Of a stretch of DNA of 64,000 bases, positions 19,101 through 41,100 are shown in pieces. Source of the stretch: Psilocybe cubensis (Eukaryota); contig CM039001.1 of NCBI GenBank assembly GCA_017499595.2, positions 2,790,001 to 2,854,000 of the forward strand. The letters run 5' to 3'. The number at the start of each line of letters is the position of its first letter. The first letter of the stretch is position 1. The notes beneath the pieces are model-generated. The model had not been told where the DNA came from, did not search any database, and saw only the letters and a list, made by a program, of their open reading frames with translations. A program made the translations under genes and the position numbers.

Positions 19101-20589
19101 CATCAAGTTAAAAATAGAACAAAGTTCAACTTAATCATGTTCTCCGCGCCTGACAATGCATGGACCAAGTTTGCACCTTCTATCAACAGCCAAAACCACA
19201 TTTGCTATATGTTTCATACCTTAAAACTACCTATAGAGATATACAATAACACATCCTGCGTATTACTGGAAGATGAAATACTCTGGGAGAAACCGTACAA
19301 ACCCAACAACAACAACAAATTTATTTTGTACCCCCATACTTAGCAACCAAGTAGCAATCACGCAAGGTACATGTTCACTGCGTATAAGCAAGTTGATAAG
19401 AAAATACACCCTGTATCTACCAGCTTCTCTAAAGATTGCCAAGTTATCCGACAAGTCACAGAGGATCCATTACTCACACTAGGGCCACTACCCACGCATC
19501 TGCTGACATTTATCCCAACTCGAAAAATTTCTACCAAACGCATGTCCAAATTGAAGATTAATTTGGGTCAATTCTTATGGCCTGAAGAAGTCAAGCTATT
19601 CCAGCATGTTATGGTACTTAACGAGGATGGAATTGCTTTTGAAGACATTGAATGTGGAACTTTAAAGGAATCATATTTTTCCTCATATATTATTCCAACT
19701 ATTGCACATTCTTTATGAGAAGAGCGAAACATTCTAATTCTGCTTGGCTTGCGTGACAAGGTTATAGAAATCATCAAGTTAAAAATGGATGCCGGAGTTT
19801 ACAAATAAAGTCAGTCATTTTATTACTCACGCTGGTTTGTAGTACTTAAAAAAAATGGCAAGCTTCAAATCATTCATGATTTGCAACCTTTTAATCAGGT
19901 AGCAATCTACAATGCAGGAACACTGCCTATAGTAGATGATTTTGTGGATAGCTTTGCTGGACGACAATGCTATATAGTGTTTGATTTGTTTTGGAGCTTT
20001 GATGCTCGCAAAATTCATCCACGAAGTTGAGATTTGACTGCTTTTATGACTTTGTTGGGACTTCTAAAAATCACATCTTTACCTACCGGATTTACAAACT
20101 CCCCAACCAAATTTCAGAAGTGCATGGTCATTGTATTACAACCGGAGATACCACATGTAGCCAATATTTTTATAGATGCCATCTATAAAAAGTGCGGGTA
20201 GATTACAAAGCATTGTAAACCCAATTAAATATTTTTTTATTCAAAATTCTCGCACTGCGTTACAACCCTCTTGAAATGTTGTGAGAAACCGGAAATATTG
20301 CAGTGTGAATAAATTAATTTGAGGTTTACAATATTTTTGGGTATTGCAATATGAAAGAATAAGCGGCTAGTTTATAATCTCAACAAATTACTGTATGAGA
20401 TGACAAGGAATCAAGAGCGTTATAAAACATTGCGAGAATTTATTGGGTTTCTCAATGATAAGGAGGATTGAATGGGATTTTGAGGCACCCAGCAGATTAT
20501 AATAGAACAAATTTATTTATTCAGTAATAAAAGTACAGGCATGGTATGTAAAGCAGGGCAGAGCAGAGCAATAATTACAGCAATGAGAG

Positions 20590-22685
20590 ACATCAGAATT
20601 TCTTAGCCTTACGTTTGATAGGTTGGCGCGTTCCCATGGTCTGGGCACCTTTCTTGGCCTTTTTAGCTGGTGGTTCTTCACCGTCGGCGGCAGTGGCGTC
20701 AGAATTGGGAGTAGGCAGGGCCTCATCCCCAGTCTCGAAGGGGTCTGAAGGTGGTGCCTGTAGCTAATATGAGCCCTAGATAGAGAATGTAATAAATACA
20801 CTCACGTCTTTACGCTTTGGACCAGGGCGGCGTGGCGCCGCTTTCCTCTTTGCAGGGAGCTAATCATAATATTAGTGTAATGAACCAATCTCGAATGAAA
20901 ACGCACCTTGATCTTGATCGGGGCTGGTGGGGAAGGGGAGCGTTTGTTTTCGGAAGAAAGAGAGGAAGAATCCTCAGAAGGGAGGTCAGGGGGGGATTCT
21001 GAAGGGATCCTAATCGCGTTTAATGCCATTCGGCGATGGGAGACTTGTTGAGGCACAGGTTCCGCCAGTGAAACAGCTGCAAATGCTTTAGCTAGCGCTG
21101 GTGCAGACCCATTATCTAGGGCGGGGTGGGAGGAGGGTGCGCGTGCTTGAGGAGATGCAGGTGCGGGTGTGGGTACACGAGCAGGTTCGGGTGTGGGTGC
21201 ACGAGGGGATGCGGGTGCAGGTGCACGAGCAGGTGCAGGTGCTTGAGCCGCAGCGGCCATTTGAGCTTTACGCCGTTCTACCGGGTCTCTGAGGCGTCCG
21301 TCGCGTGCACTACCTTCCAAAGAGGACGACTTCTTGTCATGATCCACGGGCTCAGATGGTAAGATAATGTTCCTAGAAATTCATTAGCATAAAATCAAGC
21401 GCGTAAGGCATGCTTACTCTTGCCACCAAGCCACAGTCTCCTTGGCCCACGTATTGTCATCAGAAAGACCCGACAGAAGCGTCAGAATAAATGCGTAGAG
21501 GCGGTCGGCCTTCAAAATGCTTTTCGCCTCAGGCCAAGTCTTACCGCTGATTGCAATGACAAGCTTTGAAGGAGGTTAGCACTGACAGACTACTGGCAAT
21601 GTCCACTTACCATCATGCAATAATAACATATGAGTCTTATCGTTAGTTCATATACTTTGTGAATCTGTCCTTTGCTGGCACGTCTTCCAAGCCTGTTGGC
21701 CTCGCCTACAAGCATACGTTGGACGAACTAGAGTGCCAATATGTATCAATGACATGTCAAAACATAAAAAAAAACTTACTTGGGGACCCAAGAGTGGTCA
21801 AAACAGACCTTGGACCTCGTTGTCTATGTCAAATGGGATGTCAGGGTCATACAAGCAAGCTGGCTAATCCAGCGCGTCTCCATTTTTGGTATCGGCTTCG
21901 AGTGATTCACATTGCACGCTATCCACAAATAAATCAACTCATATTCGCAGAAAATAACAAGCCGACTTACAGAATTTCACGCGCATTGAGGTCGGCGAGC
22001 TCGGCGAACTTGACACGTGGGATTAAAAGAGCGGCGTATGCAGGGTGTTTATAGCCCCGGTTCACCCTGGCACAGGCCAGTTTGTAGGCCTGTAGGTCAA
22101 GTGGGACCCTCAGATCAAATAGGATCAACTCCGGGATCAACTTATGTGCCTTGAAGAGATCGTCGGATCGCGAATGAGCTGCAGCACTCGATACCTTACA
22201 AGTATGGTTAGTCGATCTGTACATGCGACCTCACAAAATTCTTACCAAATCAATGACTTTGCCAATCAAGGCAGAATTGTCCTTGCACTTCTTGATGATA
22301 TCCATAAGGTCGGGCATTAAGTCCTGCATCTCATAAAAGGACCAGAGCTTGGGTTGTAAACTAATATATGCATAAATAAATGCCCCAGAAAAAAAAAGGC
22401 GCATATACTTACTCCAATATTTGTTGTCGGGTCATACCATCCGTTATATGGTTGGCCAGAAACTCAAGACCCTCTTGGATGACGCTCTTTACGTTCAAAA
22501 ATGGGTTGATGGACTGGTGAATCCATCTCGCGCCCTTCAGAGTGTCTGCTAGTTCGGGGCATCTACAAATAACGTTAGCGGTTAACGCGCACGGGGACGG
22601 GGGAGGGGGGGATTCAGGCTTACTCGAGTTCTTTGTTGGTGTTGATAGCCATGAGGGCTTTTTCAATCTGGGTCGGGGTGAGCAT
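20590..22685 (-). pseudogene. Transposon cargo gene 1, DUF6698-like basidiomycete protein with Pro/Ala-rich tail (disrupted)
   Basis: Multi-exon remnants ARWIHQSINPFLNVKSVIQEG, AAHSRSDD, RGYKHPAYAALLIP, ELTIRLICYYC and WAKETVAWWQ resemble the DUF6698 motif order (from recall). In-frame stops; 3' end approximate. Confidence 0.55.
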
Positions 22686-22989
22686 GGTGGTGGATGGTGG
22701 TGGTACGGGAAGAAAAGGGATGAAAAAAACTCCCTTCCGCATATACCGAGCGCAATGGTTATGTAATGGACACCTGAGGAGGTACAGATGTCCGCGCTAT
22801 TCCGCGCCATTGCCATAACTAGCGGGCGAAGGAGGCGCGATTGCCATCGACAGCGAGCTGTCAGAGGATAAAAATAGCCCACCGCGAATCACCATAGCCA
22901 GGAGGTAGCCACCCAAGACGCCCCAGGTATATCCGTGTGTTGAAGCTTGTGGCCAGGGCTTTCGACAACGAGAAGGGGTGTATACGCAC

Positions 22990-23318
22990 ACCAAACGAAC
23001 CCCTAGGTATTTCCGTGGGTTGAAGGGTGTGAGCACCGACTTGAGCAGCCTACAGACTACGGAATCACCGTAGTCAGCAGGCTGCCACCCAACGAATCCC
23101 CAGGTATCTCCGTGGGTTGAAGGATGTGGGCACCGACTTGAGCAGCCTACAGACTACGGAATCACCGTAGTCAGCAGGCTGCCACCCAACGAACCCCCAG
23201 GTATTTCCGTGGGTTGAAGGATGTGGGCACCGACTTGAGCAGCCTACAGACTACGGAATCACTGTAGTCAGCAGGCTGCCACCCAACGAACCCCCAGGTA
23301 TTTCTGTGGGTTGAAGGG
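22990..23318. repeat. 97-bp tandem repeat, ~3.4 copies, each full unit containing a long hairpin
   Basis: CAGCCTACAGACTACGGAATC recurs at 23046, 23143 and 23240. Each full unit contains GCAGCCT..GACTACGG-AATCA-CCGTAGTC..AGGCTGC (the third has CTGTAGTC). Confidence 0.95.
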
Positions 23319-23451
23319 TGGTAGTGGTGCGGAAGTCAACAGAGCCAACAAACGGAACCCCTACCCAAATTCAGATTCCGCCTGATGGCAATTTCAAACT
23401 CCGACACACGTGGTGATCTCAACACGTTCCTGCGTCATTGGTTCTTCTTCG

Positions 23452-23647
23452 CTACCCAGGCTCATTGCTCGGGCAGCCTCACTACCCAGGCTCATTGCTC
23501 GGGCAGTACGCGCAACCTACCCAGGCTCATTGCTAGGGTAGAACGCGAGACACTACCCAGGCTCATTGCTTAGGCAGAACTCATAAACTACCCAGGCTCA
23601 TTGCTAGGGCAGTACGCTTAAACTACCCAGGCTCATTGCCAGGGCAG
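23452..23647 (+). repeat. Array of six 25-nt hairpin units CTACCCAGGCTCATTGCYNRGGYAG with 5-11 nt variable spacers
   Basis: Units start at 23452, 23482, 23517, 23553, 23588 and 23623. Confidence 0.95.
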
Positions 23648-26600
23648 TACGCACCGATAAATTGGAATTCCTGCTCCCCTGACTATCCATAATGCCCCCC
23701 ATATATATCTTACAATATCGAGGTGTATTTGGTTGCTAATTCTACGTACAACAGACTACGCCCTCTTTTGACTGGTCCCAGGGCTCCGTCTTCCTACAAG
23801 ACGGTATAATTTACTACTCTCCCAATTGTAACTGACCAGTCCGTATCAAGACCCCAGAGCGGAATCACCCCCACCCATTCCCCGAACGTGCAGAGCCAGA
23901 TCCCACCTCTGTTAAGCATCCTGTCTGGTGGACAGACACCTTTGGGTGGATGTCCTTCATACCGCTCAACCCATCCTTTATCTCCGACCCCTTCGACACC
24001 TTTACCTGACAGCCTGAGCTGGATGTAACTCCTAGCTATAATACTCCACCCGGTCCCACTCTCTACCAGCTCGAAATTCATACTATAAAGCATTGGCGGT
24101 TTAAGGAACAATGTTTACTAGAAGCTGCGCACAAAATGAAGCTATGGTACCACGTACCAGCCAGTCAACCACCCCCGCCTTCCATCTTTAAATACGATGA
24201 GCCCTACACATCAAAAGAAGAAGCTTATCGCCAGATTAAATTGGCGCGAGATTGGTTTGCCGTATGGATGGGATTCTTTGCATATTTCGCTGCGTGTGCA
24301 AAGTATGACAAGTATTGTGCAGGAAAGATGGTGAGAGAGAAGGGCGAGTTACTACCCCGATGGTATACCAGGCTGCTCGAGGAGGTTCCGATGCTACAGC
24401 GATCCTGGTTGTACGGGCTTTTAACATCGCCAGCGTGTGTATTCTCACCCGACACTCAGCGTGCAGGGATAGTTATTCCCTGGTATGAATATGACAATCG
24501 GAGGCCCGAGATACAGTTCTTCCTGGACCAGCAGATTCCTGTTTTCTTTCCGTGGTGTGCCATCGCAGAACAGGCCATCATAAACAACCCCACCCTTTGC
24601 TATCTTGAGCCTCCTGCAAACCTTGTTTGGGATGCCCTTGAGAAGTTTCTGAACCGATTCCCCAGTGTTCCTCTCGCTGGCCTAATCCTTAGGTCTTACT
24701 TTCGATTTCATGATCGCCCGCTGCACTCCACCAAACATATATTGAGAATGGAACACAGTACGTCGTTGGTCACAAAATATATGTATGAAAAATTTGCCTC
24801 GCAAACCGACAAGGTCAAGGCGGCTATGGAGGAGAACCAGATGGAGGCCACGGTTGCAGAATTGAGGGAGATAGTAAGCCGAGCCATGGACATGGACCTC
24901 GCAGAGGCCAAGCGAGCCATAGCAAATCTCCCCACTCACGATTGGATGGACAAAGGTGACTACCACCGGAGAGGAGAGTTGTACGACCACGTCTCAATAT
25001 TCTTGGAGAAACACGAGAGAAACCAGCGCTTTATCATTGCGACTGAGACCGAGGACGCAAAGATCAAAAGGCTTCAAAGAGAGGAGGCCCTCCCGGGGTA
25101 CAACACATTGGTCTATAGGTGGAAAAGTGTCACGACGCCGGGGGGGAAGAAATTATACATGCGAGTTTGCCTCCTTCAATCAAAGCACGAGAGACTGTTC
25201 GCAAAGGTGCCTCCCTCTCAACGAACATACAATGCAGTCTCAAACGAGTGGGACATTTTTGATGAAGTGGATTTGCCACGAAAATATCTGCAATTTGTGG
25301 ACCCCCCTCCTAGGAAGGACGGTTATATCTACGACTATCCTATCCAAGCCGCCCGCATCAATCCCCAGTCCATCATCCCCGACAACGATGTACCCCGTGT
25401 GGAATCCGTTCCCGTCATCCCAGAACCCTGTGTAGACTCTTCCTCGGGTGGTGTGACTTCCTCTCATGAAACTCAGTACGAAACATTCCCCATGGACACG
25501 GAGGAATTTCAGGAGGGGCCTTCCCAGCCTCTGGTACATCGTCCAGAGCCGGGCCCCTCCACCATGGATACCGACACTGATGAAGCTTCGAAAATCCACG
25601 ATTACGATTGGGACACTGCCGACCTCATCTCCAACTTGCGATACAGCTATGGATTCGTAGCCTCTGTAGTCCCAAAGAAGGAGGATAAGACACCGGAAGG
25701 CTGGAAACACGCCTGTCAACACTTTGGGTTTTGTCAGGGTTTCTCCAGTTTCCCCTCTTTATCTTCACAGAATTATCTTACCCTTTCATTATCTTATCAA
25801 TTATCTGATTAGATAGTTTATTTCTTTCATCACAGCCTTTTTGCTCCACTTCTTTCTAGTAAATTCTATATGATTCCTAGTCTTACTCATCCTTTTTCTA
25901 TATGATGTCACTTTTATTCTTTAACCTTCCTTTATGATGTAATGTAGGGAATATTCTAGAATAGCTGTAGAGTATAAATACTGGACTTGTAGGTAGCTGT
26001 AGCTTCAGCTTCAATCTCTTAGGATATCCACTATCATTGGTGTGATCTCTTAGAACCATTGAATCTCTCTCACTCTCTTATTCTCTCTTTGCTCTCTTAC
26101 TCTCCCTCTGCTCTCTCTCTCTCTTGCTTAATCTTTGTTGGTGGCCTTGTCACACTGATTATAGTGTTGCCCTGACAGAAGATTGAAGCTCTCTCAAGAC
26201 AACTCCACCATCTCTCTTTCAACACCAAACTCTTCACCTCTTCAACCTCTTCAACACCATTACCTCAACCTTCTTCCTCCACTTCCAACCCACCAACCTC
26301 TTCATCAACCTCTTCACCAATCTTCTTACCACTCTCTACATCTCCACCAATCTTCAACATCCTCCTCAAGACCTTTCCTCAAGACCTTTGGCTCATCATC
26401 TTTCCTACTCTCTGTTGTGTGCTGTGTGTGAACTTAGTAGATAGGGATACCAACTGTTGGGGCAGACACAGTCCTACTAGTGTTCTGTTTTTGGTGGTCT
26501 AGGAAATATCCAGTAACCCTGTGATCCTAGGTTTAGAGCCCTGAGTGGTGTGACAACTGGGTATCCAGTAGATAGATATTTTTTTTTTTTAGAATACTTA

Positions 26601-26673
26601 GTATAGTTTCAAGGGCACTTTCAGTAGATAGCTTCTCCCACACACACATCAGAGAGCCTACCTACCCCTACCC

Positions 26674-27783
26674 ATGGACATGGACCCCTCCCAATTGCCT
26701 CCCACCACTCCTTCTGTGGAAGAGCTCATGCATCAGGTCCAGCTCCTTACCCAAGAGTTGAATTTTCTTAGACAGCAGCAGCAGTCATTATCCACTCCAC
26801 CACACCCTCAGCAACCAGTCAGTCAGTCACCATCACCACCACCACCACCACCACCTGCTGCTCTAGATATTCACTCTTTCCCTACCCCTCATGTTGCCCC
26901 TTCCTGTTCACACTCTGCCATTAAAGTCTCACCTCCAGATCCATTTGATGGTTCTATGGAGAAGGCAGAAAACTTCCTCAGTCAGCTTAAATTATATTTC
27001 TATGGGAAAGGGATTACAGATGACTTTCAGAAAGTTATTTGTGCTCTATCTCATATGAAAGGAGGTACTGCTGGGAAGTGGGCATATGAGAAGACTAAAG
27101 TAATAGACAATGCTCAGTCCCAAGAAGGTCTTTGGGCTGACTTTGTTTATGAATTTAGGGAAGTGTTTGCAGATCCAGACCCCTCCAACACAGCTAAGCA
27201 TAAAATGCACATGCTCAAGCAAGGCAGACAGACTGCTGATGAGTATGTTGCTAGCTTCAGGGCTCTGATCTCAGATACTGGGTATAATGATGCTGCTTTG
27301 GTAGACCAATTCAAGGCTGGGCTTAATGAAAATCTCAGGAATGCAGTCTACTATGTTCCTGATATGCCCAAAACCTTGGATGGATGGATTAAATGGAGTA
27401 CTAGGCTAGATAGGCAGTGGAGACAGAGTGAGGCCTTTACCAAGTCTCTTTCCTCCTCCTCTTCTTCTCCCTTCCTTAAAGCCCCAACTCCCAAGGCTGT
27501 TCCTAAGCCTACTCCAAATCCTCCAGTCTTTTCCAACAGCAGCTCAAGGACCTTTGGTGCTCAGGCAAAGCAACCAGATGTAGTTCCCATGGAGGTTGAC
27601 TCTGGATGGAAGTCAGTTAGGCCAATTGTTTGCTTCAAGTGCAGAAAGCCTGGTCATAAGGCTGTAAACTGCAGGTCATCAGTTAACATCAATGCTATGA
27701 CCCATGAAGAACTGGCTGACTACTTTGGGAAATTAATCTTGGAAGGCAAGGAGCAGAAAGATGAGGAAAAGAAAAATTTTTAG
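26674..27783 (+). CDS. gag: Retrotransposon Gag with CCHC zinc knuckle
   Basis: PDPFDG, LKQGRQTADEYVASFR, VPMEVD and CFKCRKPGHKAVNC. Confidence 0.95.
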   Translation: MDMDPSQLPPTTPSVEELMHQVQLLTQELNFLRQQQQSLSTPPHPQQPVSQSPSPPPPPPPAALDIHSFPTPHVAPSCSHSAIKVSPPDPFDGSMEKAENFLSQLKLYFYGKGITDDFQKVICALSHMKGGTAGKWAYEKTKVIDNAQSQEGLWADFVYEFREVFADPDPSNTAKHKMHMLKQGRQTADEYVASFRALISDTGYNDAALVDQFKAGLNENLRNAVYYVPDMPKTLDGWIKWSTRLDRQWRQSEAFTKSLSSSSSSPFLKAPTPKAVPKPTPNPPVFSNSSSRTFGAQAKQPDVVPMEVDSGWKSVRPIVCFKCRKPGHKAVNCRSSVNINAMTHEELADYFGKLILEGKEQKDEEKKNF

Positions 27784-30700
27784 AAGCACCATTGGTGAAA
27801 GACATGTCCCAATGGAATAGATTTAATGTACTAGAAAATGAAATTGACAGACTTGATCCTCAGTCTTCAGATTCTGGTGCAGAAATCATGTCTTCTTCTT
27901 CCTCTCTTTCTACCTTCCCTGAAAAGATCTACATCCTCAACCATAATCCTAAAACCTCTACCCATTTGTCTGTCATCTTAAAGACAATGGACACAGAGAA
28001 AAGGTTATCTGTTGATGCTTTGCTTGATTCTGGAGCTACTGGCCTCTTTCTGCATTCTGGTTTTGTGAAGTATCATAATCTCAACACAAGGAAACTTCCT
28101 AGAGCCATTCCAGTCTATAATGTTGATGGTACTCTCAACAAGAGTGGCTCTATCCATGAGGAAGTAGACTTAATTATGGTACACAAAAACCATACAGAAA
28201 GGGCCACCTTTGCTGTTTGTGACTTGGGAGACAAATCTGCTATCATTGGACATACTTGGCTTTGGCACCATAATCCAGATGTTGATTGGAAGACAGGGGA
28301 TGTCCAGTTTATTAGATGTCCCTCTGACTGCCAAATGGAAGCCAAAAGAGCCAGAAGAAAGAGGCAGAGAATAGCTGCAGTCAAAAGGAGGAAACTCCCT
28401 CAATTTGATGAAGAAGAAGATGATTCTATTGAAGATTCTTCTGATTCTGAGATTGAGCCTGAGGATAGAATTTTTATCTCATACCTTCATCCTCAGAAGC
28501 AGTCTATTAATGCTACTTCTACTATGTCTCAAAGATTAGCAGAAGAGTCTCATCAGCAAGCTGATTCCCCTAAGAAAACCTTTGAAGAAACTGTTCCTAA
28601 GCACTATCATCAGTTTAAAGGTGTTTTTTCAAAGGAATCTTTTGATAGGCTACCAGACAGAAAGCCTTGGGATCATGCTATTGAGCTAAAACCTGGTTCT
28701 GAACCTTACAGATCCAAGATTTATCCTCTTTCTCCCAATGAACAAAAGGAACTTGATGCCTTTTTAGAGGAAAATCTGAAGTCTGGCAGGATTAGACCCT
28801 CCAAGTCACCTATGGCCTCCCCTGTATTCTTTGTCAAGAAGAAGGATGGATCTCTTAGGCTTGTCCAGGACTATAGGAAACTGAATGAAATGACCATCAA
28901 GAACTCCTACCCCCTTCCATTGATTTCTGACATCATCACCAAACTCAGCAAAGCCAAATACTTCACCAAACTTGATGTTAGGTGGGGATTTAACAATGTC
29001 AGAATCAAAAAGGGAGATGAATGGAAAGCAGCCTTTAGAACCAATAGAGGGCTGTTTGAACCATTGGTCATGTTCTTTGGTTTAACCAATAGTCCTGCTA
29101 CCTTCCAAACTATGATGAATGATATCTTTATTGAGCTCATTGATGGAAATGTTGTCATTGTCTACATGGATGACATTTTAATTTTCACTGAGACTCTTGA
29201 TCATCATAGAGAGGTAGTCAAGCAAGTTCTGCAAATCCTAGAACAGAACAAACTCTACCTTAAAGCAGAGAAATGTGAATTTGAAAAGGAAAAGATTGAA
29301 TATCTTGGACTAATCATTTCACAAGGCAGGATTGAGATGGATCCTGTCAAGGTAGAGGGAGTTTCTAAATGGCCTGAACCTGAAAATGTCAAGGATGTCC
29401 AATCATTCTTGGGATTTGTTAATTTTTATAGAAGGTTCATAAAGGATTTTGCAGACATTGCTAAGCCCCTTCATGAATTGACAAAGAAAGGAACAGTCTG
29501 GAGATGGAGTCTTAGACAGCAGGAAGCCTTTGACCAGTTAAAGAAGAAAGTCACTTCTTCACCTGTCTTGATTTTCCCTGATGATAACAAGCCATATAAA
29601 GTTGAAGCAGACAGTTCAGATTATGCTACTGGGGCTGTTTTATCTCAGGAAGGATCAGATGGGAAATGGCATCCTGTAGCCTTTATGTCTAAGAGTCTAT
29701 CTGAAGTAGAAAGGAATTATGAGATCCATGACAAAGAGATGCTGGCTATTATCAGAGCACTAGATGAATGGAGACATTATCTTGAAGGAACCCAACATTC
29801 CTTTGAGATTTGGACAGACCACAAAAACTTAGAGTACTTTATGGTTGCCCAAAAGCTCAGCAGAAGGCAAGCCAGATGGTCACTCTTCCTGTCCAGATTT
29901 GATTTTACTCTTCATCATAGGCCTGGTAAAAGATCTCTTAAGCCAGATGCTTTGTCTAGGAGACCAGATCATAAAAAGGGAGAGAATGATAACCAAAATG
30001 TAGTTCTCCTCAAACCTTCCTACTTTAAAATCCAGGCTCTCAAGCAGGGTCATGCTACCATTACTGGTGCAGAAAATGATCTTCTTAAGAAGATTAGAGA
30101 AGCTAAGGAGATGGATGAAAAGGTGGTCAAGGCAGTTCAGGAGCTCAAGAAATCTTCTACCAAGAAGATTGAAGGACAGGAATGGTCAGAAGAACAAGGC
30201 CTTATTCTCTACAGGGGGAAGGTGTATGTTCCCAAGGACAAAGATCTTAGAAGAAAGATTGTGGAACTGCACCATGATGCCTTCATTGCTGGACATCCAG
30301 GGAAATGGAAGACAATTGAGCTAGTCTCTAGGAATTATTGGTGGCCAGGAATGTCACATTTTATTGCAGCCTATATCAGAGGTTGTGATAGATGCAACAG
30401 AACCAAAACCTTTCCAGCCAAACCTCTTGGCCTTTTAATTCCTACTGAGATTCCCTCTGATGTCTGGCAATGCATCTCTGTGGACTTTATTATGGGGTTA
30501 CCAGAATGTCAAGGGTATAATGCCATTATGGTGGTTGTGGATAGACTTAGTAAAATGATCCACATTATCCCTACCACAGATGAAGTCACTTCTGAAGGGA
30601 CAGCCAGACTATACAGAGATTATGTCTGGAAACACCATGGCTTACCCATTAAAATTCTGTGTGATAGAGGTCCACAGTTTGTCTCAAGGTTTATGAAAGA

Positions 30701-31661
30701 ACTCAACTCAATACTTGGTATCCAGACAGCTTCATCTACAGCCTACCATCCCCAAACTGATGGTCAGACTGAAAGAGTTAACCAAGAAATTGAGCAGTAT
30801 CTTAGACTCTTTATAAACCATAGACAAGATGATTGGGTTGAATGGTTAGCTCTAGCTGAATTCTCTTATAACAATAGAGTTCAGGCTTCAACCAGGCAGA
30901 CACCATTCATGCTCAATAATGGCAGACATCCCAGAATGGGCACTGAACCCCTTAGAGATAGTAAAATGGACACTGTGGATACCTTTGTGAAAAATATGGA
31001 AGAAGCCAGGAAAGAAGCAGAGTCTGCACTTAGAAAAGCTGCTGATGATATGGCTAAATTCTATAATAGACACAGAGGTACTCCAACTCAGTACAAAGTT
31101 GGGGATTTGGTATGGTTGGATGGCAAGGACCTCAAAACTGATAGGCCCTCCAAGAAATTGGATGATAAAAGATATGGGCCTTACAAAATTACCAAAGTTA
31201 TTAGCCCTAATGCCTATGAGCTTAAGCTGCCATCTACCATGAAAATCCATCCAGTGTTCAATGTGGTTAAACTTCTACCTTATCACCCAGATATTGTAGG
31301 AAGAAAGCCTCCTTCTAGACCACCTCCTATCATTCAAGGAGAAAATCCTGAGTGGGAAGTTGAATTTATCAAGGACAGCAGACTTTTTAGAAACAAACTT
31401 CAATATTTGGTCAAGTGGAAGAACTACCCTAATGAAGAATGCACTTGGGAGCCTGCAGAGCATTTGAAAAATGCTTCTAAGGCTATCAAGGACTTCCATG
31501 CCAAACATCCTTCAGCACCTAGAAGGATTTCTGCTGTGACCTTTGATAGACTTTCTTTCACTCCTATTATTAACTTTACTGAACCTCCTCCTCTTCTTAA
31601 ACCCTCTAAACTAACCCATCCATGTGCACATTGTGGAAAATGTGCCTTAGAGAGGGGGTGA
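27780..31661 (+). CDS. pol: Pol (protease-RT-RNase H-integrase-chromodomain), in the -1 frame relative to gag
   Basis: LLDSGAT, YMDDIL, EADSSDYATG, HHDAFIAGHPG/CDRC, DRGPQF, QTDGQTERVN and chromodomain WEVEFI..YLVKWKNY..TWEP. Slippery A-AAT-TTT lies at the gag end. Confidence 0.95.
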   Translation, partial: LEAPLVKDMSQWNRFNVLENEIDRLDPQSSDSGAEIMSSSSSLSTFPEKIYILNHNPKTSTHLSVILKTMDTEKRLSVDALLDSGATGLFLHSGFVKYHNLNTRKLPRAIPVYNVDGTLNKSGSIHEEVDLIMVHKNHTERATFAVCDLGDKSAIIGHTWLWHHNPDVDWKTGDVQFIRCPSDCQMEAKRARRKRQRIAAVKRRKLPQFDEEEDDSIEDSSDSEIEPEDRIFISYLHPQKQSINATSTMSQRLAEESHQQADSPKKTFEETVPKHYHQFKGVFSKESFDRLPDRKPWDHAIELKPGSEPYRSKIYPLSPNEQKELDAFLEENLKSGRIRPSKSPMASPVFFVKKKDGSLRLVQDYRKLNEMTIKNSYPLPLISDIITKLSKAKYFTKLDVRWGFNNVRIKKGDEWKAAFRTNRGLFEPLVMFFGLTNSPATFQTMMNDIFIELIDGNVVIVYMDDILIFTETLDHHREVVKQVLQILEQNKLYLKAEKCEFEKEKIEYLGLIISQGRIEMDPVKVEGVSKWPEPENVKDVQSFLGFVNFYRRFIKDFADIAKPLHELTKKGTVWRWSLRQQEAFDQLKKKVTSSPVLIFPDDNKPYKVEADSSDYATGAVLSQEGSDGKWHPVAFMSKSLSEVERNYEIHDKEMLAIIRALDEWRHYLEGTQHSFEIWTDHKNLEYFMVAQKLSRRQARWSLFLSRFDFTLHHRPGKRSLKPDALSRRPDHKKGENDNQNVVLLKPSYFKIQALKQGHATITGAENDLLKKIREAKEMDEKVVKAVQELKKSSTKKIEGQEWSEEQGLILYRGKVYVPKDKDLRRKIVELHHDAFIAGHPGKWKTIELVSRNYWWPGMSHFIAAYIRGCDRCNRTKTFPAKPLGLLIPTEIPSDVWQCISVDFIMGLPECQGYNAIMVVVDRLSKMIHIIPTTDEVTSEGTARLYRDYVWKHHGLPIKILCDRGPQFVSRFMKELNSILGIQTASSTAYHPQTDGQTERVNQEIEQYLRLFINHRQDDWVEWLALAEFSYNNRVQASTRQTPFMLNNGRHPRMGTEPLRDSKMDTVDTFVKNMEEARKEAESALRKAADDMAKFYNRHRGTPTQYKVGDLVWLDGKDLKTDRPSKKLDDKRYGPYKITKVISPNAYELKLPSTMKIHPVFNVVKLLPYHPDIVGRKPPSRPPPIIQGENPEWEVEFIKDSRLFRNKLQYLVKWKNYPNEECTWEPAEHLKNASKAIKDFHAKHPSAPRRISAVTFDRLSFTPIINFTEPPPLLKPSKLTHPCAHCGKCALERG

Positions 31662-33513
31662 TGTCAGGGTTTCTCCAGTTTCCCCTCTTTATCTTCACAG
31701 AATTATCTTACCCTTTCATTATCTTATCAATTATCTGATTAGATAGTTTATTTCTTTCATCACAGCCTTTTTGCTCCACTTCTTTCTAGTAAATTCTATA
31801 TGATTCCTAGTCTTACTCATCCTTTTTCTATATGATGTCACTTTTATTCTTTAACCTTCCTTTATGATGTAATGTAGGGAATATTCTAGAATAGCTGTAG
31901 AGTATAAATACTGGACTTGTAGGTAGCTGTAGCTTCAGCTTCAATCTCTTAGGATATCCACTATCATTGGTGTGATCTCTTAGAACCATTGAATCTCTCT
32001 CACTCTCTTATTCTCTCTTTGCTCTCTTACTCTCCCTCTGCTCTCTCTCTCTCTTGCTTAATCTTTGTTGGTGGCCTTGTCACACTGATTATAGTGTTGC
32101 CCTGACAGGTTTAGAAAGGATGGGGCAGAACAGTTTGTCTCAAACACGGATCGTCAACTCATCTGTCAGTTTCATGACGGTTTGATGGGGTCAACTGACC
32201 GTCCGCTCCCTCAAGACATTCACGATCTCCACCCGCAAAATTACCTATCCCTTCAAGTTTTAGGGAATCTCAGCCTTATCCATCGGCCCATCCCAAATCT
32301 ATTTGTTTTCGCTCATCACGACATACGTGCACCTCAGGAAAAGTCCGACAGAATGTCTGCTGATTGGAGTATTGGAGTCGAAACCCCAGAGGCTGCTTTA
32401 TATGTCTTACGAGTCTTCCAGTCCCATCCTGGGCATACAGTTGTCAGTGTGGCACACAGACTTTTGTCCAAAGGAGTGCAGTTTCGAACTCTTGTCGGGC
32501 GTAAAAATGTGGTTCAGGTGCATCAACCCTACAAGGAAGTTATCTTTTACCGCAAAGTCAGCTACAAGTTTACCAACGACGACTATGAGTCCTCAATGCT
32601 GGCCTGTCGGCAGATACTGGACCAACAACGCGGTCGTGCAGCGCTACTCATGGGTGGAATAGTAGGACGAATCGCCAAAGAGTATCTGAGCACAGAGTCT
32701 GTTCTCCAGGGCCCATCAGTAGAATTGCTGAGAAATGGACGCGGATATGTCGCTAATCCAGAGGCCGAGTTGCTGGCTTACTGCAATGACGGGCTTACAG
32801 AACACGATATTGCGATTATTATCGGGTCGTATTCTCTCATGACGGGTAAGTGTTCACTACATTTAACTGATTGCTCTATTTAATGTCGTTTTTAGATTTT
32901 AAAAATCAGGTCGGAGTCAAGTCTTGGTTTCCTCCCCCGGCGGTATGGAATGAAATCGACAAGAATGGGATAGGATGGCTGGAATGGACTGAACGCAACG
33001 AGTACTGGTACCAGACTAGGCTGGAATTAATTTGAAATGGCAAAGCGCAACCTTTAACGCTTCAAGACTGGAAGAGCCTTCTCAAAAATAAGCCAGTCCG
33101 TATTCTAAGGGAATCGGTGCGAGCTCAATCAGCGGCATTTGTCCATGAACATATCCCCATAACCAGGAATCCTCGTAGATAGGTAGCACATTTTTCTTGT
33201 TTCTTCATTCACGGATCTACACCACTACTCACAGTGTATTTTTGCCTTTGTACATACTACAAAACAAATTTTATGTATACTATCTATATTTCTTCGTACA
33301 GACTATTGGTCAGATATCATGTATACCACGGAAAAAATTGTTTGGACCTGCATCGAAACATGTGTGAATCAATTCTGAGCCCAAAAAACATAAAAAAAAC
33401 ATGAGATTGCTTACAGTAAGCTGGTTAGGCCAATCAAAACTCCGCTAAGTTTTGAACTCCGACACCGCGCCCTATCACACGTGAGGTTGATGTCTGCACT
33501 CTCCTTATTTGCT

Positions 33514-33810
33514 CTACCCAGGCTCATTGCTTGGGTCAGAACGAATTGGTGGCTCGCTATCCAGGCTCATTGCCGGGATAAGAGCTTCCTATCCACTGTC
33601 CAGGCTTATTGCTAGGACAAGGATTTTCTACCCCCTATCCAGGCTCATTGCTGGGATAAGGGTGTCGTTCGCCTGCCCAGGCTCATTGCTTGGGCAAGGA
33701 TATCCCCCCTATCCAGGCTCATTGCTGGGATAAGGGTATCGTTACTCTGCCCAGGCTCATTGCTTGGGCAAGGATTTTCTACTCCCTATCCAGGCTCATT
33801 GCATGGATAG
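33514..33810 (+). repeat. Array of eight hairpin units around AGGCTCATTGC with covarying stems
   Basis: Stems ACCC/GGGT, TATCC/GGATA, TGTCC/GGACA, TATCC/GGATA, TGCCC/GGGCA, TATCC/GGATA, TGCCC/GGGCA and CTATCC/GGATAG. One head reads AGGCTTATTGC. Confidence 0.95.
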
Positions 33811-33833
33811 TTGTACTTCAGCAGGCCGTAATT

Positions 33834-36800
33834 ATGTCCAACGAAAAAAGACCCTGCTTAGGGTGCCATAAACTCTTTGTACCAGGTCGCTCCTTGAAGC
33901 AGCATACCAACAAATGTAAAAAATATCCTGCTGCAATGAGCAAGGTCCTGAAGGGGTTCCAGGAAAACTTCAGCAGGCAGAATCAGAACAGTAATGTTGC
34001 CAGTGGTTCTTCGCACCAGGCAACCCTGAATAATGAGCCCGGGCCTATGGACGTTGATGTCCATCATGAGTATCTCGATGTGGATATGGTACCACCTCCA
34101 ATGCCCCCTGCGCCTCCACCTAAATCACCAACACCACCACCACATCCCCCGACACCACCACCTCCCATTGAATGGCCCAGAGGACTTCCTCCACGCGTTA
34201 TTAGATTGCCACAGCGCTTCCGAGACGAGGTCCCACCCAAACCTCCTCTAATTATACCACCAGTCGTGGAGGAGGAACCACCTCAGCCTCAGGAACCTCC
34301 ATCTGTGGAGAGTCTGTATCGAACACCAATGAATGGCTATGGGATATTTTGAGAGTATACCTATAGTCCCCCTTCTATTACTCCTGATGAACATTTCACA
34401 CTGTCATCAGTGTCCGATTCTCCAAATATTGCCAAAGACCCAGCCGACTCTTTGAGAAAGGCGTCAGAGGGAACACCAATGGCCCTACCTTCGGATTGGT
34501 TCTTGGATTCTGAGCCAAAAGACAACAAGAGCTTGCTATTCAAAAATCGTTCTACTCAACTTATCATGTCTTGGTTTTACAACGGCCACGGTACTAAATC
34601 CTACGCTGATACCGACAAATTGATTCACCAAGTCGTACTGGACCCGGATTTTGACCCCAAGGACTTTGATTCCTCCTTTTCTACTGCTCAAGAGGCAGCA
34701 CGTCTGGACGAAATCTCCACCCAAAAAAATTCTACAGATTCTACTTTGTCAGAAGTGTGTTGACCGGAAGCTGGGTGGATCAAGGGCAGCTTTTCAATAC
34801 CAGTGCCATGCGACGGTTTCATATTCGATTCGGAAGAGGAGGCTCCTCAATTTGTTGTTGAAAACGTCATGTATCAAAAACCTCTAGAAGTTATCAAACA
34901 GGCCTTTGCAGAATGCACCTCTGAGACGTATACGACCATACCGTACAGAGAATTTTGGCGTCCCTCACCTGACGAACCACCCAAACGCTTATTCTCAGAG
35001 TCCTACGTGGCGGACATTTTCAATGAAGAGTATGAAAAGATCAAGTCAGAGCCACGCATAGGTCCCCACAGACACCTGGAGCCCTTTGTCGTTGGTATCG
35101 GGATTTTTTCAGATTCTACCCACCTGACCAGTTTTGGCGATGCTTCTATATGGCCGATCCTTATGTATATCCTCAACCAGTCAAAATACACCAGAGGGAA
35201 ACCTAAAGAATTTGCTGCGCACCATATTGCGTATATCCCTAAAGTAAGTTTGTATTGACTGGCATGTACTATTCATATTAACGTTTGGGTCATAGCTCAC
35301 AGACACTTTTCAAGATTGGCATCAGCGACAGTTTGGCAAAGCTGCGACATCTGAAATGCTCACCCATATGAGATGCGAGGTCAATACAGGCGTCTGGGGG
35401 CTATTACTTGATGAGGATGTCAAACGAGCGTATGCTGAAGGAGAGGCCGTAGAACTGGCCGACAGAGTATGTCGAGCTATGTATCTCTGTTTTATTTTTA
35501 GTTCAAATGACTACCCCGAAAAGTAAGTCAACATCTACTCGTTATTTCGTTTGATAACTAATGTACAAGCAGAATGCTGCAGTCCTGCTGCAAGTGTCGC
35601 GGCACTTGCTTGTGTCCACGTTGTTTAATTCAAACTATGAATGTCCCAAAGGTTGGATCAAAGATGGATATGCGAAACCGGCTCAAGCTAGCTCGCGTTG
35701 ACAGCAAAATTCGTCAATTTGACATCGAAACTGCCCATAAAGCATTGTTCTTGGGGAAAAAGATTAACAGCAAGGCGGTTAATGGCTTGCTGCAACAGAC
35801 CTCTGCTTTTCCAATTCGGGTATATTTTTATTTCCTCATATCTACGTATTTTGTCTAAGAATATTACATAGAACGCTTTTTCCAAGGCTTTATTTGAATA
35901 TGGCTTCAACTTTTATCGGATGTTTACTGCTAACCGTGTCGAGATACGCAAGCTGCTGTGTGAGGACAGGGAGTTACTGGAGCCCACTCCTCCTGATTTA
36001 CATTATCACATCTCATCAGACGTGCGTTGAAAGTTAGATATACTACCCTGGATGTCACAAAACCAAAACGATCCGGCGACAAGGGTAAGCCAGATTTTTC
36101 GCTTGTTTTTATATACTCAATGTTGTATTTAGGACTTTATGCTTCGTCTCAAAACTCACCTTTATGCCCGCTTATCAGGGGTAAACGAATTCAGTGATAG
36201 CATTGGTACCCATGAGCGACTCCAAATCACAATATTCGGTGACCGAATTTACGAACATCAGGTTCTACGCATCAACTATACTTCGTATGATATGTGTCGA
36301 ATACAAGATACCTTGAAGCCAAACTCTTCCCGATGTGACATCATGGTACTTGCTAGCAACAAAGGTGCAGATCAGCAGGTTCATCTTTATTGGTATGCCC
36401 GTATCATTGGAATCTACCACGCCAATGTGGTAATATCTACCCCTGATGATTACTACCGTGCCTCCAAGCACAAAGTGGATTTTCTTCATGTCCGATGGCT
36501 GGGTGTTTGTGAAGATTGCCATTACGGTTGGAAATATAGAAGGCTTCCACAGTTGGTGTTTGGTGATATCAATGACTCTGCGTCGTTTGGTTTTGTGGAC
36601 CCATCCCTCGTAATTCGTGCAACCCATTTGATTCCTCGCTTCATTCTTGGAAAAATACCGACTCTCGGCCTATCTGTAGCTTATAGAAGCAAAGAAAATA
36701 ATGAAGGGGAAGAATGGGAGAGATATTATGTCAATTTGTGAGTACATTTAGTCACTTCTTACCCTTTACTAATTTTTTACAGTTTTGTGGATCGCGACAT

Positions 36801-37143
36801 GGTCATGCTGTACAGAGGGGGTGGAGTTGGCCACGCTAGCACGCGAGCCGCTACCAATTCTCTTAGGCAAGACCGACGTGCAGATGACATTGCCTCTCGC
36901 AAAAAACGCCGCGAGGCACATGAAGCACCCGATCCTGATCTGGAACCAGATGGGGCCTCAGACCAGGAGCAAGACGCTCAGGACCAGGCTAAAGTGGCAC
37001 CTGAAAACAGCGCCGATTCTGATGACAATGAAGATGACAGCGACCAGCATACCGATTCTGAAGAGGAGGAGGAGGAGGAGGAGGAAAGCGACGAGGATGA
37101 GGACCGGGGTGACCTCGATGAACTTGGGTTCGCTGAATACTAA
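33834..37143 (+). pseudogene. Plavaka-family transposase (disrupted, probable internal deletion near 35930)
   Basis: N-terminal CxxC..H..C finger, then GWIKGSFSIPVP, YQKPLEVIK, FSDSTHLTSFGDASIWP, NQSKYTR, AHHIAYIP, DYPEK, CPRC, RINYTSYD, YWYARIIGIYH, FGFVDP and an acidic tail. Contains introns and CGA>TGA-type stops. Confidence 0.85.
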
Positions 37144-37363
37144 CTGTAGCTTTATGTGAGTCTGTCGTTGATTCTCTTGTACCTCTACTAACACCTTTTT
37201 AGATGTATCCTTGTCTTGGCGAGTAATACACAATACTTTTCTTGATTTTAGCGTGATTCGGTAAGAAAATGTATTGATATTTAACTGAAATTTTATTGTA
37301 ACATCCCTATACATCGCTGTACGCCCTTTGGGCTCTACTCTCTCATTGTGCAACTACGTATGT

Positions 37364-37475
37364 GTGCCTTACCCCCCTCACATCAACCCTCATACACCAC
37401 CTTAGCTGCAGCCCGACACGTGCCTTACCCCCCTCACATCAACCCTCATACACCACCTTAGCTGCAGCCCGACAC
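37364..37475. repeat. Perfect 56-bp direct tandem duplication
   Basis: GTGCCTTACCCCCCTCACATCAACCCTCATACACCACCTTAGCTGCAGCCCGACAC occurs twice in tandem. Confidence 0.95.
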
Positions 37476-37802
37476 GATACCGCCCTTATATTTCAGCGAT
37501 AAGGACAGCACCAAGCATCGCCCCCAACCCAGTTCTGCAGTCTATTTCGACCTGGACGTGCCTGGCGCGCGCCACGCGTGTGCTGCGTATGCGCGCGCCA
37601 CGCGTTTGATGCGTATTGCGCGCGCCACGCATGTGATGCGTATGCGCGCGCCACGCGTGTGCGTGTTCGTCCAGATACAAAGAGGCGTTGATACGGGGAG
37701 GGAGGGGTATACAAATCTCACATGGATGTGTTTTGAAAAATAAAACTTGATTTCATTGTACACGCGTCACGGTAAACTCATAGTGCCTGTCGAACGGGCC
37801 CT

Positions 37803-38189
37803 TTATTCCATCATCTCAACGTCCTGATCATCCCCCTCCCCATCGCGCATCTCAACGTCGCTGTCTTCGACGGTCCCCGAGTCCTTGATACGATTTTCGA
37901 CTGCGACAACCTGTTCCTCCCGCTCTCGAATTTCGCCGTGGGTCGAAACGACGGGTTCGGTGTCGACTCGCCCGGTCATGGGCTCTTCTACGCTGACAAC
38001 GATCTCGACCTTGTTGTCGGTATCAACGTTGACGCCGATTTTTGCGTGCCCGTTGCGGCCATCAACGGCAACGTTGAGCCTGAGGCCGTCGCGATCGATC
38101 GCGAGGCCGAATTGTACTCCTTGGAGTGCAAAAAAAAATTAACAGTGAGTACTTACTTTGAATATTGAAGACTCACCTTGCTCATCCAT
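37803..38189 (-). CDS. Transposon cargo gene 4: small spliced 109-aa acidic protein of unknown function
   Basis: Exon 38189-38177 (MDEQG), intron GTGAGT..AAG 38176-38120, exon 38119-37803 (VQFGLAIDRDGLRLNVAVDG...DDQDVEMME*). No stops. The AAG acceptor is a less common type. Confidence 0.55.
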
Positions 38190-41100
38190 TTGTCGTCTTC
38201 CGTTAACTCTTGTTATGCCATTAGAATGCAGTGGTGACTCGCTGGCGCACTGTGGCAGGTTTGGTGGTGGTGGTGGTGGTGGTGGTAGTTGAAAAAAAGA
38301 AGCGCGCCGCCATCGTTGATGACTGCGGCGCGCTTTTCCACGCCCGTTTTGGTCATCGTCGTCGACGATGAGCTCGATATCGACGATTTTTTAACGGATT
38401 AGCGTGTTTATTTTATGTATACGTATAGAAATACAACGCTTACCGTGTGTGAAACTTCAAATAAGCGATCGTATGTTATATTTAATACACACGCCGGGGC
38501 AAGACATTTGGCCCCTATGTCGACCGGTTATGTAATGGCCGGTCAACCGGACTTGTCGTAAACATACAAAAATTCTTACTTGATTTTGCAGGGTAAAACA
38601 AATAATTGTTTGGATATTGTAAAGCTAATAAAAATATTACTTAACATTGTAAACCGGGCCCCAAAATTTGGGTGCATTTGTAAGACAAAAAATTTATTGT
38701 ATTGGTTTACATAGCATTGTAATCTACTGCCTATTTAGTTGATGTGATTTACCAATCAAGTGTCCAAAATCTCAGTACTTGAATGCAGATGGAGAACCGG
38801 AAACTATACCCAAGAATTCTGGAATTTAAAAATTTATTTGGGAACATGCACAAGATGTACACCAAGTAATGCATTGGATTAAAGAATCTGGCGCTACATT
38901 TGCAGCAAACAAATCACAAATATGTCTTCCAGAAGTACTCATTGTGGGACAGACATGTAACGCGCAAGGGAGATCTCCAGACAAAGCAAAAATTAATAAA
39001 ATTATGGAATAGCCTCCACTTACCACCGAACAGGAAGTACAAAGGTTTTTGGGACTAGCAGGCACAATGCATATATGGATACCCAATTATTCTACTTTGG
39101 TAAAACCCTTATCAGAATTATATCACAAAGACAAAGAATTTATCTGGGATGAAAGGCGTCAAAATGCATTTGACACCATTAAGAATAAAATCACAAATGC
39201 TCTGATACTTATGCTAATTGACTACTGCTCAGAACGACCTGTCATTCTAGCAGTAGATTCTGGCAAATATGCAGTAGGAATGATTTTATATTAGATTGAT
39301 GAAGATGGTAGAAAACGACCAGCTCAATTTGGGTCCATACCAATGAGTGAACCATACCAATGAGTGAAAGGGAATCAAGATACTCACAACCAAAGCTAGA
39401 ATTATTTGGACTATATTGGGCCCTGCAACACTGGAGAATTTACTTAATAGATGTCAAAAACTTGAAGGTAGAGGTAGGTACAAAATACATCAAGAGAATA
39501 TTAAATAATCCAGATTTACAACCCAATGCAGCTATAAATAGATGGATCCAGGGAATATTGTTCTTTGCTTTTGAATTGGTACATGTATCTGCGCAGAATC
39601 ACAAAGGGCCAGATGCATTATCCCGAAGACCCTTAGCAGAAGAAGAAATAGCAGAATCAGATGATGATAGTTGGCTAGATGCAATCACACTCAATACAGA
39701 CCAATGGAATAACAGACATCAAACAGGTTTTGGCTTCTAGAACCGCACAAAATACTCTTTTAGAAAATATTAAACATTTTCTACAAACATTAGAAACACC
39801 CATATTCATGGATAGTCAGAAGAAAAGAAAATTTTTAAGCAAAGCAACTCAATTTTTTATTTAGAATAAACGGATGTACAAGTGCAATGATACTTGATCT
39901 CCATTATTAGTAATTCAGCGACTTGAATCCAAAATTGCTATACTCCGTCGAACACATGAGGAACTAGGACATAAAGGGGTCACCTCTGTATATGAACTAC
40001 TTTGACATTATTTCTACTGGCCACACATGCAAGCAGATGTACACCATCATGTATGTACCTGTCATGAATGCCAAGTACGGAGTTTGAAAAGAACAGAAAT
40101 TCCACTTACCATATCTACTCCAACAAAATTATTCTCAAAAATATATCTTGATATAATGCACATGCCAACCTCACATGACAAGAAAGTCTGTATTATTGCA
40201 GCCCAAGATGACCTATCAGGAGTATGCAAAGCTTGAGCACTAGAAAACAAGACAGCAGAAGAATTAAAACTCTTCTTTTGGGAACAGATATATTGTCAAT
40301 ATGGAGCACCTGAACATGTAATCACGGATAATGGAGGAGAAATAAAAGGTGCATTTGCAATATTACTCAAACGTCTAAAGATTCTACAAATATGCATTAC
40401 TCCTTACAACCATCATGCTAATGGAGTAGTAGAACGTGGTCACTTTGTGTTACAAGAAGCTATCATAAAGTCATGCTAAACTACTAGAACACCTATCACT
40501 CACTGGCCTGAGAAGTTGTCAGAAGCCTTATTCACTGATAGGGTTACAATTAGTTGTATAATAGGATTTTCCCCATATCAACTTCTGCATAGAACCGACC
40601 CCTTACTTTCCTTAGATTTGGCCAAAGCCACTTTTATGGTTGAAGGATTCTGTCCCCGCATGTCAATCAGTCGTTTACTAGCCATGCAAATGCAGCAACT
40701 CAGCAAACACCCAAAAGACATAGAACAGGCCTCAAACATCTTCAAAAAAGCTTGCTTTGCTTCTAAAGAGCAATTTGAAAAGCGGTTTATACACCAACTA
40801 TCCAGAAATAAATATAAAATTGGAGAATTAGTATTGGTTTGGAATATAGCCATTGAAATGAGTCATAATTGCAAACATAAAGTACAATACTTAGGGCCAT
40901 TTATTATCAAACGGCATCATGAAAACGGGTACTATATTGTTAGCAAATTAGATGGAGTGGAGTATAAGGCCAAGGTGGCACCTGCACGGCTCTTACCCTA
41001 TATCACCAGGGATCATCAATTCATGAAAGAGAATCCTACATATCGTAATAATTGCGAATCTGATACATCAGGCACCACTACTTCTGAATCTAAAAGTGAC

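Follow-up and report, generated by a model that had tools for sequence, protein, structure and literature searches.

The stretch of DNA analysed here (the window) comprised 64,000 nt of Psilocybe cubensis contig CM039001.1 (assembly GCA_017499595.2, positions 2,790,001 to 2,854,000, forward strand) and contained a DNA transposon at positions 20179..38744. PlavakaB elements are defined, in the main-text sections of PMC12730594 covered here, by a Plavaka transposase, CATCA..TGATG ends and a target duplication of 2 or 3 nt. The transposase, the ends and the target duplications of the host element all agreed with this definition, and the element is a PlavakaB of Kojima. Its ends were CATCA...TGATG, although two copies, that of the window among them, had an altered left end, and its length was 13.6 kb when counted without the retrotransposon insertion and without the deletion. 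Six other copies were compared with the window copy and were mostly 93-99% identical; five of these six had 2-nt target duplications (TA, CA, GA, TT, and CA). The transposase gene, which contains introns, was located at 33834..37143 on the + strand and matched PF18759 (E 3.5e-11; 43.4 bits against a cut-off of 26.3). Relative to other copies, the window copy of this gene carried two premature stops and a deletion of ~850 nt near 35930.

Two further genes were found in the element. An accessory gene, here called gene A (23692..33182, + strand), encodes a protein of ~950 aa that is labelled PF28437 in the protein database, where a Psilocybe cubensis protein is 97% identical to the gene A product. 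In the window copy, gene A was split by a Ty3/Gypsy insertion of the chromovirus type (25732..32107, + strand; 5-nt target duplication GGTTT), which lies outside the hairpin system described below, whereas in four other copies the main exon was an open frame of 920 codons. The Ty3/Gypsy element itself was full-length, and its gag and pol frames were open. A divergent multi-exon gene (20590..22742, - strand, limits approximate) was DUF6698-like, with three exons matching PF20414 at E 0.0005-0.01, each under the curated cut-off.

Two hairpin arrays were present on the + strand. Array B (33514..33810), the one proximal to the transposase, contained eight hairpins with an invariant head (CCAGGCTCATTGC) and covarying arms. 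The heads, CCAGGCT(C/T)ATTGC, were located at 33518, 33561, 33600, 33639, 33677, 33713, 33751, and 33790, and the units were spaced by 36-43 nt. The preliminary description of this DNA had placed eight hairpins 23 nt before the transposase start; the last arm indeed ended at 33810 and the ATG was at 33834. Array A (23452..23646) contained six units with the same head and lay ~45 nt before the ATG of gene A (23692). Thirteen of the 14 heads in both arrays were identical, in line with the near-invariance first reported, and all 14 had the same orientation. A search of the window with the head pattern, allowing at most two mismatches, gave 17 matches against a chance mean of 2.9, and the 14 exact ones were all within the two arrays.

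Both arrays started ~55 nt downstream of the motif AACTCCG, with CACGTG in between. The putative core of the transposase promoter (33438..33483, + strand) contained AACTCCG twice (33438 and 33455) and CACGTG (33478), and one pair of these motifs lay upstream of array A (23397..23412, + strand), at the point where the head orientation flips. Of 44 metagenome leaders, four had (A/T)ACTCCG upstream of their gene-facing arrays, as had three other families of the window genome; the promoter role of these motifs is putative. Upstream of the AACTCCG of array A, 97-nt repeats (22989..23317, - strand) carried hairpins of the form GACTACGG-TGATT-CCGTAGTC that faced the divergent gene; the loop TGATT is similar to the loop of the array head.

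The arms of array B had been described as changing in compensated pairs, and this was borne out. In an ungapped alignment of the eight units with a given structure, two-sided change occurred at 5 of 12 pairs, 88.5% of the cells were paired, and the covariation score was reached by none of 500 shuffles. Slid control structures were 24-45% paired; the tested structure was derived from these same units and thus had an advantage over its slid versions. RNAalifold returned the same structure with 11 pairs, four of which showed two-sided change. When both strands were folded, all eight hairpins were part of the minimum free energy structure of the + strand (z -6.7), and the - strand gave a z of -5.5. 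The arm extensions GCTC/GAGC, ATCC/GGAT, and ACCC/GGGT were located in units 2-4, in which the lower stem had three different sequences. The best match of array B in Rfam had an E of 6.6, so that no family was matched. The inner G of the head was paired with U in six units and with C in one, as had been proposed, but the pair was broken in unit 8, where this position was G.A in the window copy and G.G in other copies. The associated argument from G-U pairing held for the inner pair only, since G.T and A.C were equally frequent (11:11) over the 13 distinct units of the window family. The structure of array B would likely act on + strand RNA.

Array B was present in nine copies, and the eight copies compared around it had 35 variable columns, too sparse for a selection test. 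Units 4-7 of the array were a duplicated dimer (71 nt, 94% identical), and the arm types therefore number four rather than eight: TACCC/GGGT, TATCC/GGATA, TGTCC/GGACA, and TGCCC/GGGCA. These represent all four combinations of two compensated pairs. Together with the three lower-stem sequences, they cannot be explained by the duplication of two or three ancestral units, and the paired but unrelated arms found in relatives from other genomes (see below) also contradict that explanation. A neutral minisatellite that is palindromic by accident would agree with the recent duplication of the dimer and with the presence of other tandem repeats in the element. This reading, however, was refuted by the recurrence of the same design in about ten gene A clades, and by a head that is invariant while the arms change. 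Furthermore, the head had 125 matches in the whole genome and none in the control, and all 100 listed of these 125 were in arrays of the window family. A neutral origin thus has hardly any probability left, and the view that array B is no simple minisatellite was upheld.

The same hairpin design, with a different sequence, was found in about ten gene A clades, and the gene A relatives that have it share 23-38% identity. Four related gene A families in the window genome had their own arrays with other heads, namely GAA-CGT-TT (L106/L119), CAGGAGATCT (L112), and AGAAG-NT-CTTCT (L120 and L133; L149), whereas three more distant families of this genome (L150/L151, L152, and L153) had no clear array, although inspection by eye suggested two or three weak units of the GGAT type at L152. 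At L150, an array-less homologue, CAGGCTCATTG (~1210-1222) equals 11 nt of the window family's head; it lies ~35 nt before the likely ATG, forms no hairpin, and may be due to chance. The AGAAG-NT-CTTCT family of L120-L128 and L137 has a gene A frame of 1006 codons and is located near the ends of C15, C10, C8, C7, and C2. Its three copies on C15 (46136, 75606, and 105076) are spaced by exactly 29,470 nt, one copy adjoins telomere-like CCCTAAA repeats, and no transposase was found within 1.5 kb downstream.

A metagenome scan yielded 79 gene A loci, 44 of which included the complete start of the gene and sufficient DNA upstream of it. At least two hairpins with the same head were found in 20 of these 44 leaders (some of them near duplicates) and 24 failed this test; none of 20 transposase leaders from other Plavaka families of the window genome passed. 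Ten further leaders all passed, but they had been chosen after their arrays were seen. A blind, strand-symmetric hairpin scan, in which G.T counted the same as A.C, detected 170 hairpins in 51.9 kb from 54 leaders (3.3 per kb) against 50 in 119 kb of coding DNA (0.42 per kb). At L170 and L203, the head of gene A was found again before the transposase. Gene A was the query by which every related locus was retrieved, so that its presence in all of them is circular in part. The head pattern had no match in viral contigs, and seven related loci gave no Rfam match at the gathering score.

Pairing of the arms was maintained across head families. When units were picked by head alone, cognate arms paired better than swapped arms in six of eight testable families (p 0.0002-0.033) and not significantly so in two small ones (p 0.19 and 0.25). 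Selection on pairing, which the preliminary description had postulated, is therefore supported. The arrays are not specific to the transposase, a point missed in that description: they accompany gene A and stand before several genes. Unit spacing in the relatives ranged from ~30 to >200 nt and was interrupted by predicted introns, and the spacer at the hairpin tip varied from 4 to 6 nt inside one head family.

The heads also had a fixed direction and position. They pointed away from the promoter, and their direction flipped once at the promoter in 12 of the 15 loci that had both orientations; two of the three exceptions arose because a self-complementary loop was scored once for each strand, and the third was a stray match. 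Orientation as a mere avoidance of ATG was rejected, because heads without ATG on either strand flip too. In 34 gene-facing array spans with the heads masked, nine ATGs were observed against 58.7 expected, whereas 36 control windows 3' of gene A had 145 against 164 expected and the far-side spans showed little loss (21 against 26.8 expected). This purging resembles that of 5' leaders, and the loss of ATG would imply scanning through the array rather than internal entry. Heads were within motif-predicted introns, which make up 5.4% of the length, in 2 of 123 cases (p 0.036, a weak result), and at L162, L164, and L189 they were downstream of a predicted intron.

Head types followed the tree of gene A, which was a quick one of 35 rows with labels assigned by eye and four short rows excluded. 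Kin share labels on such a tree, so that the match is consistent with co-evolution and does not prove it. One genome contains at least four types of head, and this speaks against one common reader supplied by the host. The divergent DUF6698 gene was also considered as the reader of the hairpins and is less likely, since this partner is less constant than gene A: among 19 loci scanned, the far side had DUF6698 in two and WD40-like frames in two (105 frames; short exons could be missed). The WD40-like partners, at L164 and L174, had weak Pfam matches and indicate that this cargo varies. The idea that the head is a U1A site or a tRNA anticodon loop was discarded, since the tips of other families differ.

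In En/Spm, TnpA binds 12-bp subterminal sites, which are located in the last few hundred bases of the element and are retained by mobile derivatives. The arrays could likewise be subterminal-type cis sites for transposition, and Plavaka and EnSpm both belong to the CMCT clade in the sections of PMC12730594 covered. The arrays, however, are at least 3 kb from the element ends, and all three complete short derivatives of the element (1.4, 2.2, and 3.5 kb) had both ends and matching 2-nt target duplications (TA, AG, and AA) but no head. The arrays are therefore dispensable for movement, and a role as transposition sites is largely refuted and very improbable. Non-autonomous derivatives with the ends of the window family were found at L238 (G000:C11:396900-401100), L240, L241, and L242; a stretch captured in them resembles, by eye, an Hsp60/GroEL chaperonin gene, as in Pack-type capture by Plavaka.

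The gene A family had 2549 representatives at E up to 0.001. The copy of Pfam that was searched with gene A had no matching family, barring WD40 in one long match; PDB sequences gave no match, the Atlas no usable one, and no HTH match was found. An AlphaFold2 model of the protein was confident (pLDDT 80.8, pTM 0.78), as was that of the C-terminal half (pLDDT 79.7, pTM 0.77). Foldseek with the model found nothing in PDB and BFVD at E up to 0.001, and the best VIA results were helical bundles for the whole model (Z 4.7) and RuvA for residues ~403-908 (Z 3.9, rmsd 6.2, 83 aligned). The predicted fold thus appears to lack a match, both for the whole model and for the C-terminal part; such negative results are no proof of a new fold. 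In the model, a conserved Arg-rich helix at 439-445 (K439, R442, and R445) precedes a small beta-sheet that bears R473 and R493, and acidic residues close to the C-terminus (D794, D862, D863, and position 869) are nearly invariant. These features are compatible with nucleic acid binding but do not demonstrate anything beyond that compatibility; no feature of the predicted fold indicates RNA binding. In other loci, gene A neighbours an EnSpm-type transposase, DUF6589 or a fungal kinase gene, which indicates that the cassette is not bound to Plavaka.

From the observed pairing, family-specific tips, orientation, link to gene A and ATG loss, we infer that the arrays may be leader RNA hairpins that are read by the element's own gene A protein, a reading based on sequence to which we assign a probability of roughly 0.45. 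The 5' leader of the transposon mRNA would then carry each array as a series of address tags. The tip of each tag (the loop and the top pairs) would be read by its sequence, whereas the lower arms would only need to pair. The most likely reader would be the gene A protein (PF28437), each clade having its own tip. Tags would stand before gene A, before the transposase and, reversed, before the divergent gene, and one protein could thus control the whole element while ignoring other families. By binding the nascent or mature leader, the gene A protein would help the transcript to escape host silencing or decay.

The invariance of the tip separates this reading from that of an RNA structure acting only in cis, with no protein reader, by slowing scanning ribosomes or stabilising the leader, which is closest to the idea of the preliminary description. 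Stable folding beside the ATG, the depletion of ATG and paired arms of free sequence would all suit such a structure. It leaves unexplained why 13 of 14 heads are identical and family-specific, why the tips match the gene A tree, and why the design is absent from the 20 other Plavaka transposase leaders, and it is regarded as improbable. Less probable still is the processing of the array, perhaps by gene A, into small RNAs or guides of unit length, as in CRISPR or TIGR arrays. The arrays do look like repeats and linkers with a period of 36-43 nt, and the acidic residues of gene A (D794, D862, D863, and position 869) could be catalytic, but the linkers are mutually pairing arm extensions that are duplicated between units rather than the unique, unpaired spacers that CRISPR and TIGR arrays have between constant repeats. 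The variable and intron-broken spacing in the relatives also opposes a guide array, and cutting would decap the mRNA.

The evidence for RNA as the target of the reader, rather than DNA, was divided. ATG loss and orientation favoured a place of the sense strand in a transcript, whereas the folding of array A and the unit-level G.U counts opposed it. Distinct stem events, read on the gene-facing strand in 11 head families (137 of 158 distinct units with a scorable stem), gave G.T against A.C as 51:28 (p 0.013). On the other hand, the unit-wise ratio was 106:86 (p 0.17) and was reversed in two families (5:12 and 37:47), so that the G.U bias is weak. Units that folded better in sense than in antisense numbered 67 against 61; the corresponding numbers for random leader windows were 310 and 719. 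Array A folded with a z of -0.9 in sense and -3.6 in antisense, which counts against RNA. The arms of array A (CTACCC/GGGCAG) are mismatched (A.C) at a position that is A-T or G-C in array B, which is the opposite of the usual RNA path.

The units could instead act as DNA, that is, as imperfect inverted repeats of fixed orientation, located shortly after the promoter, that gene A binds as a dimer or as extruded hairpins, recruiting an anti-silencing activity as VANC or TnpA does, with the covariation produced by template switching. Stems that are nearly symmetric between strands, the better antisense folding of array A, and heads that are in some cases almost perfect palindromes with a centre of 1-2 nt are in keeping with this. 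Template switching can create compensated stems without intermediates or RNA selection, according to the sections of 10.1101/2021.04.15.439925 covered, and the four outer pairs of array B indeed showed no one-sided intermediates. VANC motifs are themselves family-specific DNA sites in one orientation that have been tandemly expanded (PMC5735166, sections covered). Neither plain DNA model, however, accounts for all the design rules: paired arms would be superfluous in a monomer site, and a dimer site does not require an invariant oriented spacer and would tolerate the 4-6 nt change in spacer length badly, whereas a loop would do so more easily. Template switching would reportedly invert spacers too (PMC8604942), but all 14 heads keep one orientation. 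The scarcity of heads in predicted introns is a further, weak objection, as VANC motifs also occur in introns (PMC5735166, sections covered). A DNA target is the main alternative, if on balance rather unlikely. The reading preferred here, a leader hairpin recognised at its tip, would require pairing, a particular tip sequence, a direction, and inclusion in the transcript.

The logic of the system would resemble that of VANC if the target is DNA and that of Tat-TAR or N-boxB if it is RNA, the parts being unrelated. HIV Tat-TAR and lambdoid N-boxB rely on promoter-proximal hairpins of the transcribed strand that have family-specific loops and an element-encoded reader, and lambdoid nut sites face outward on both sides of divergent promoters. 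In those systems the hairpins number one or two and the Arg-rich proteins are small and disordered, whereas 2-8 hairpins, a candidate reader of 950 aa that is predicted to be folded, and a eukaryotic cut-and-paste transposon are involved here. In the MS2 coat operator and in the IRE bound by IRP, a leader hairpin has a loop of fixed sequence, a stem whose sequence is free, and a conserved base, unpaired or mismatched, that lies a few pairs beneath the loop. A fixed tip on a stem kept by covariation was likewise found here, but the known sites are single and repress translation, whereas those of the window family form arrays and have no Rfam match.

VANDAL elements of Arabidopsis (MuDR) are similar in that a DNA transposon encodes an accessory protein, VANC, with sequence-specific anti-silencing activity, which acts through short, family-specific non-coding motifs that have one orientation, are tandemly multiplied and differ between related families (PMC5735166, sections covered). 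A dense, family-specific motif in one orientation was also found here in non-coding parts of the element. VANC, which demethylates its element, on the other hand binds unstructured double-stranded DNA motifs of 8-9 nt, also in introns, and the word palindrome is absent from that paper (PMC5735166), whereas every motif described here tops a covarying stem, is placed after the promoter and before the ATG, and reverses along with the direction of transcription. TnpA of En/Spm is likewise an accessory protein that activates cognate copies, in an element of the same transposase clade (CMCT), but TnpA-like proteins have tandem HTH domains, a subterminal effect and an apparent restriction to flowering plants (10.64898/2026.08.24.746577, sections covered). 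The arrays, in contrast, are internal and missing from mobile derivatives (none of three carries a head).

By analogy, a positive effect on the genes of the element is slightly favoured over a repressive one. Activation or protection from silencing would be in line with VANC and TnpA, and the growth of site numbers by tandem duplication would be expected if a selfish element is activated through these sites more than if it is repressed. Alternatively, the protein could exert a feedback repression of scanning, like the MS2 coat or IRP. A wider proposal, an orthogonal RNA address system in which a widespread family of ~950-aa proteins with an undescribed fold uses clade-specific leader-hairpin tips to license transcripts against host silencing, and in which the cassette (divergent promoter, hairpin arrays and reader gene) moves between element types, is doubtful. 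If true, it would represent Tat/TAR-like transactivation in cut-and-paste transposons and natural RNA tag/reader pairs that do not cross-react.

Elements of this kind are known; the literature searched gave no account of the arrays or gene A, none of PF28437, and none of Plavaka with a hairpin. The main-text sections of the PlavakaB paper covered (Kojima 2025, PMC12730594) do not describe them, and its main text as a whole contains no use of hairpin, stem-loop or accessory. Escape of fungal transposons from silencing is known mainly for carriers of TET enzymes, according to the same sections (PMC12730594). For elements that lack TET, gene A and its arrays would be a candidate, with a named protein, candidate sites and about ten tip variants that predict protein-hairpin pairs. 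If RNA is the target, the arrays would form a control layer not described for DNA transposons in the literature searched, and could supply orthogonal pairs of RNA tag and reader. With DNA as the target, they would be a fungal parallel to VANC, with a fold that is still without a match.

Several other repeats were located in the window. A GC-rich, CpG-dense tandem repeat of 26 nt, capable of forming a hairpin, was present near the right end of the element (37565-37661); it is far longer in other copies, such as that of C5 (~450 nt). A hairpin (GTCCGG-TCAA-CCGGAC) and the motif GTTATGTAAT were located on the minus strand (~38490-38560), ~200 nt inward from the right end, where a fourth gene on that strand may start; they correspond to element positions 13317-13328 in the C12 copy, and the motif recurs near the start of the divergent gene (~22760). 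Outside the element, an AT-rich tandem repeat of 35 nt with ~5 copies was located at 61950-62112.
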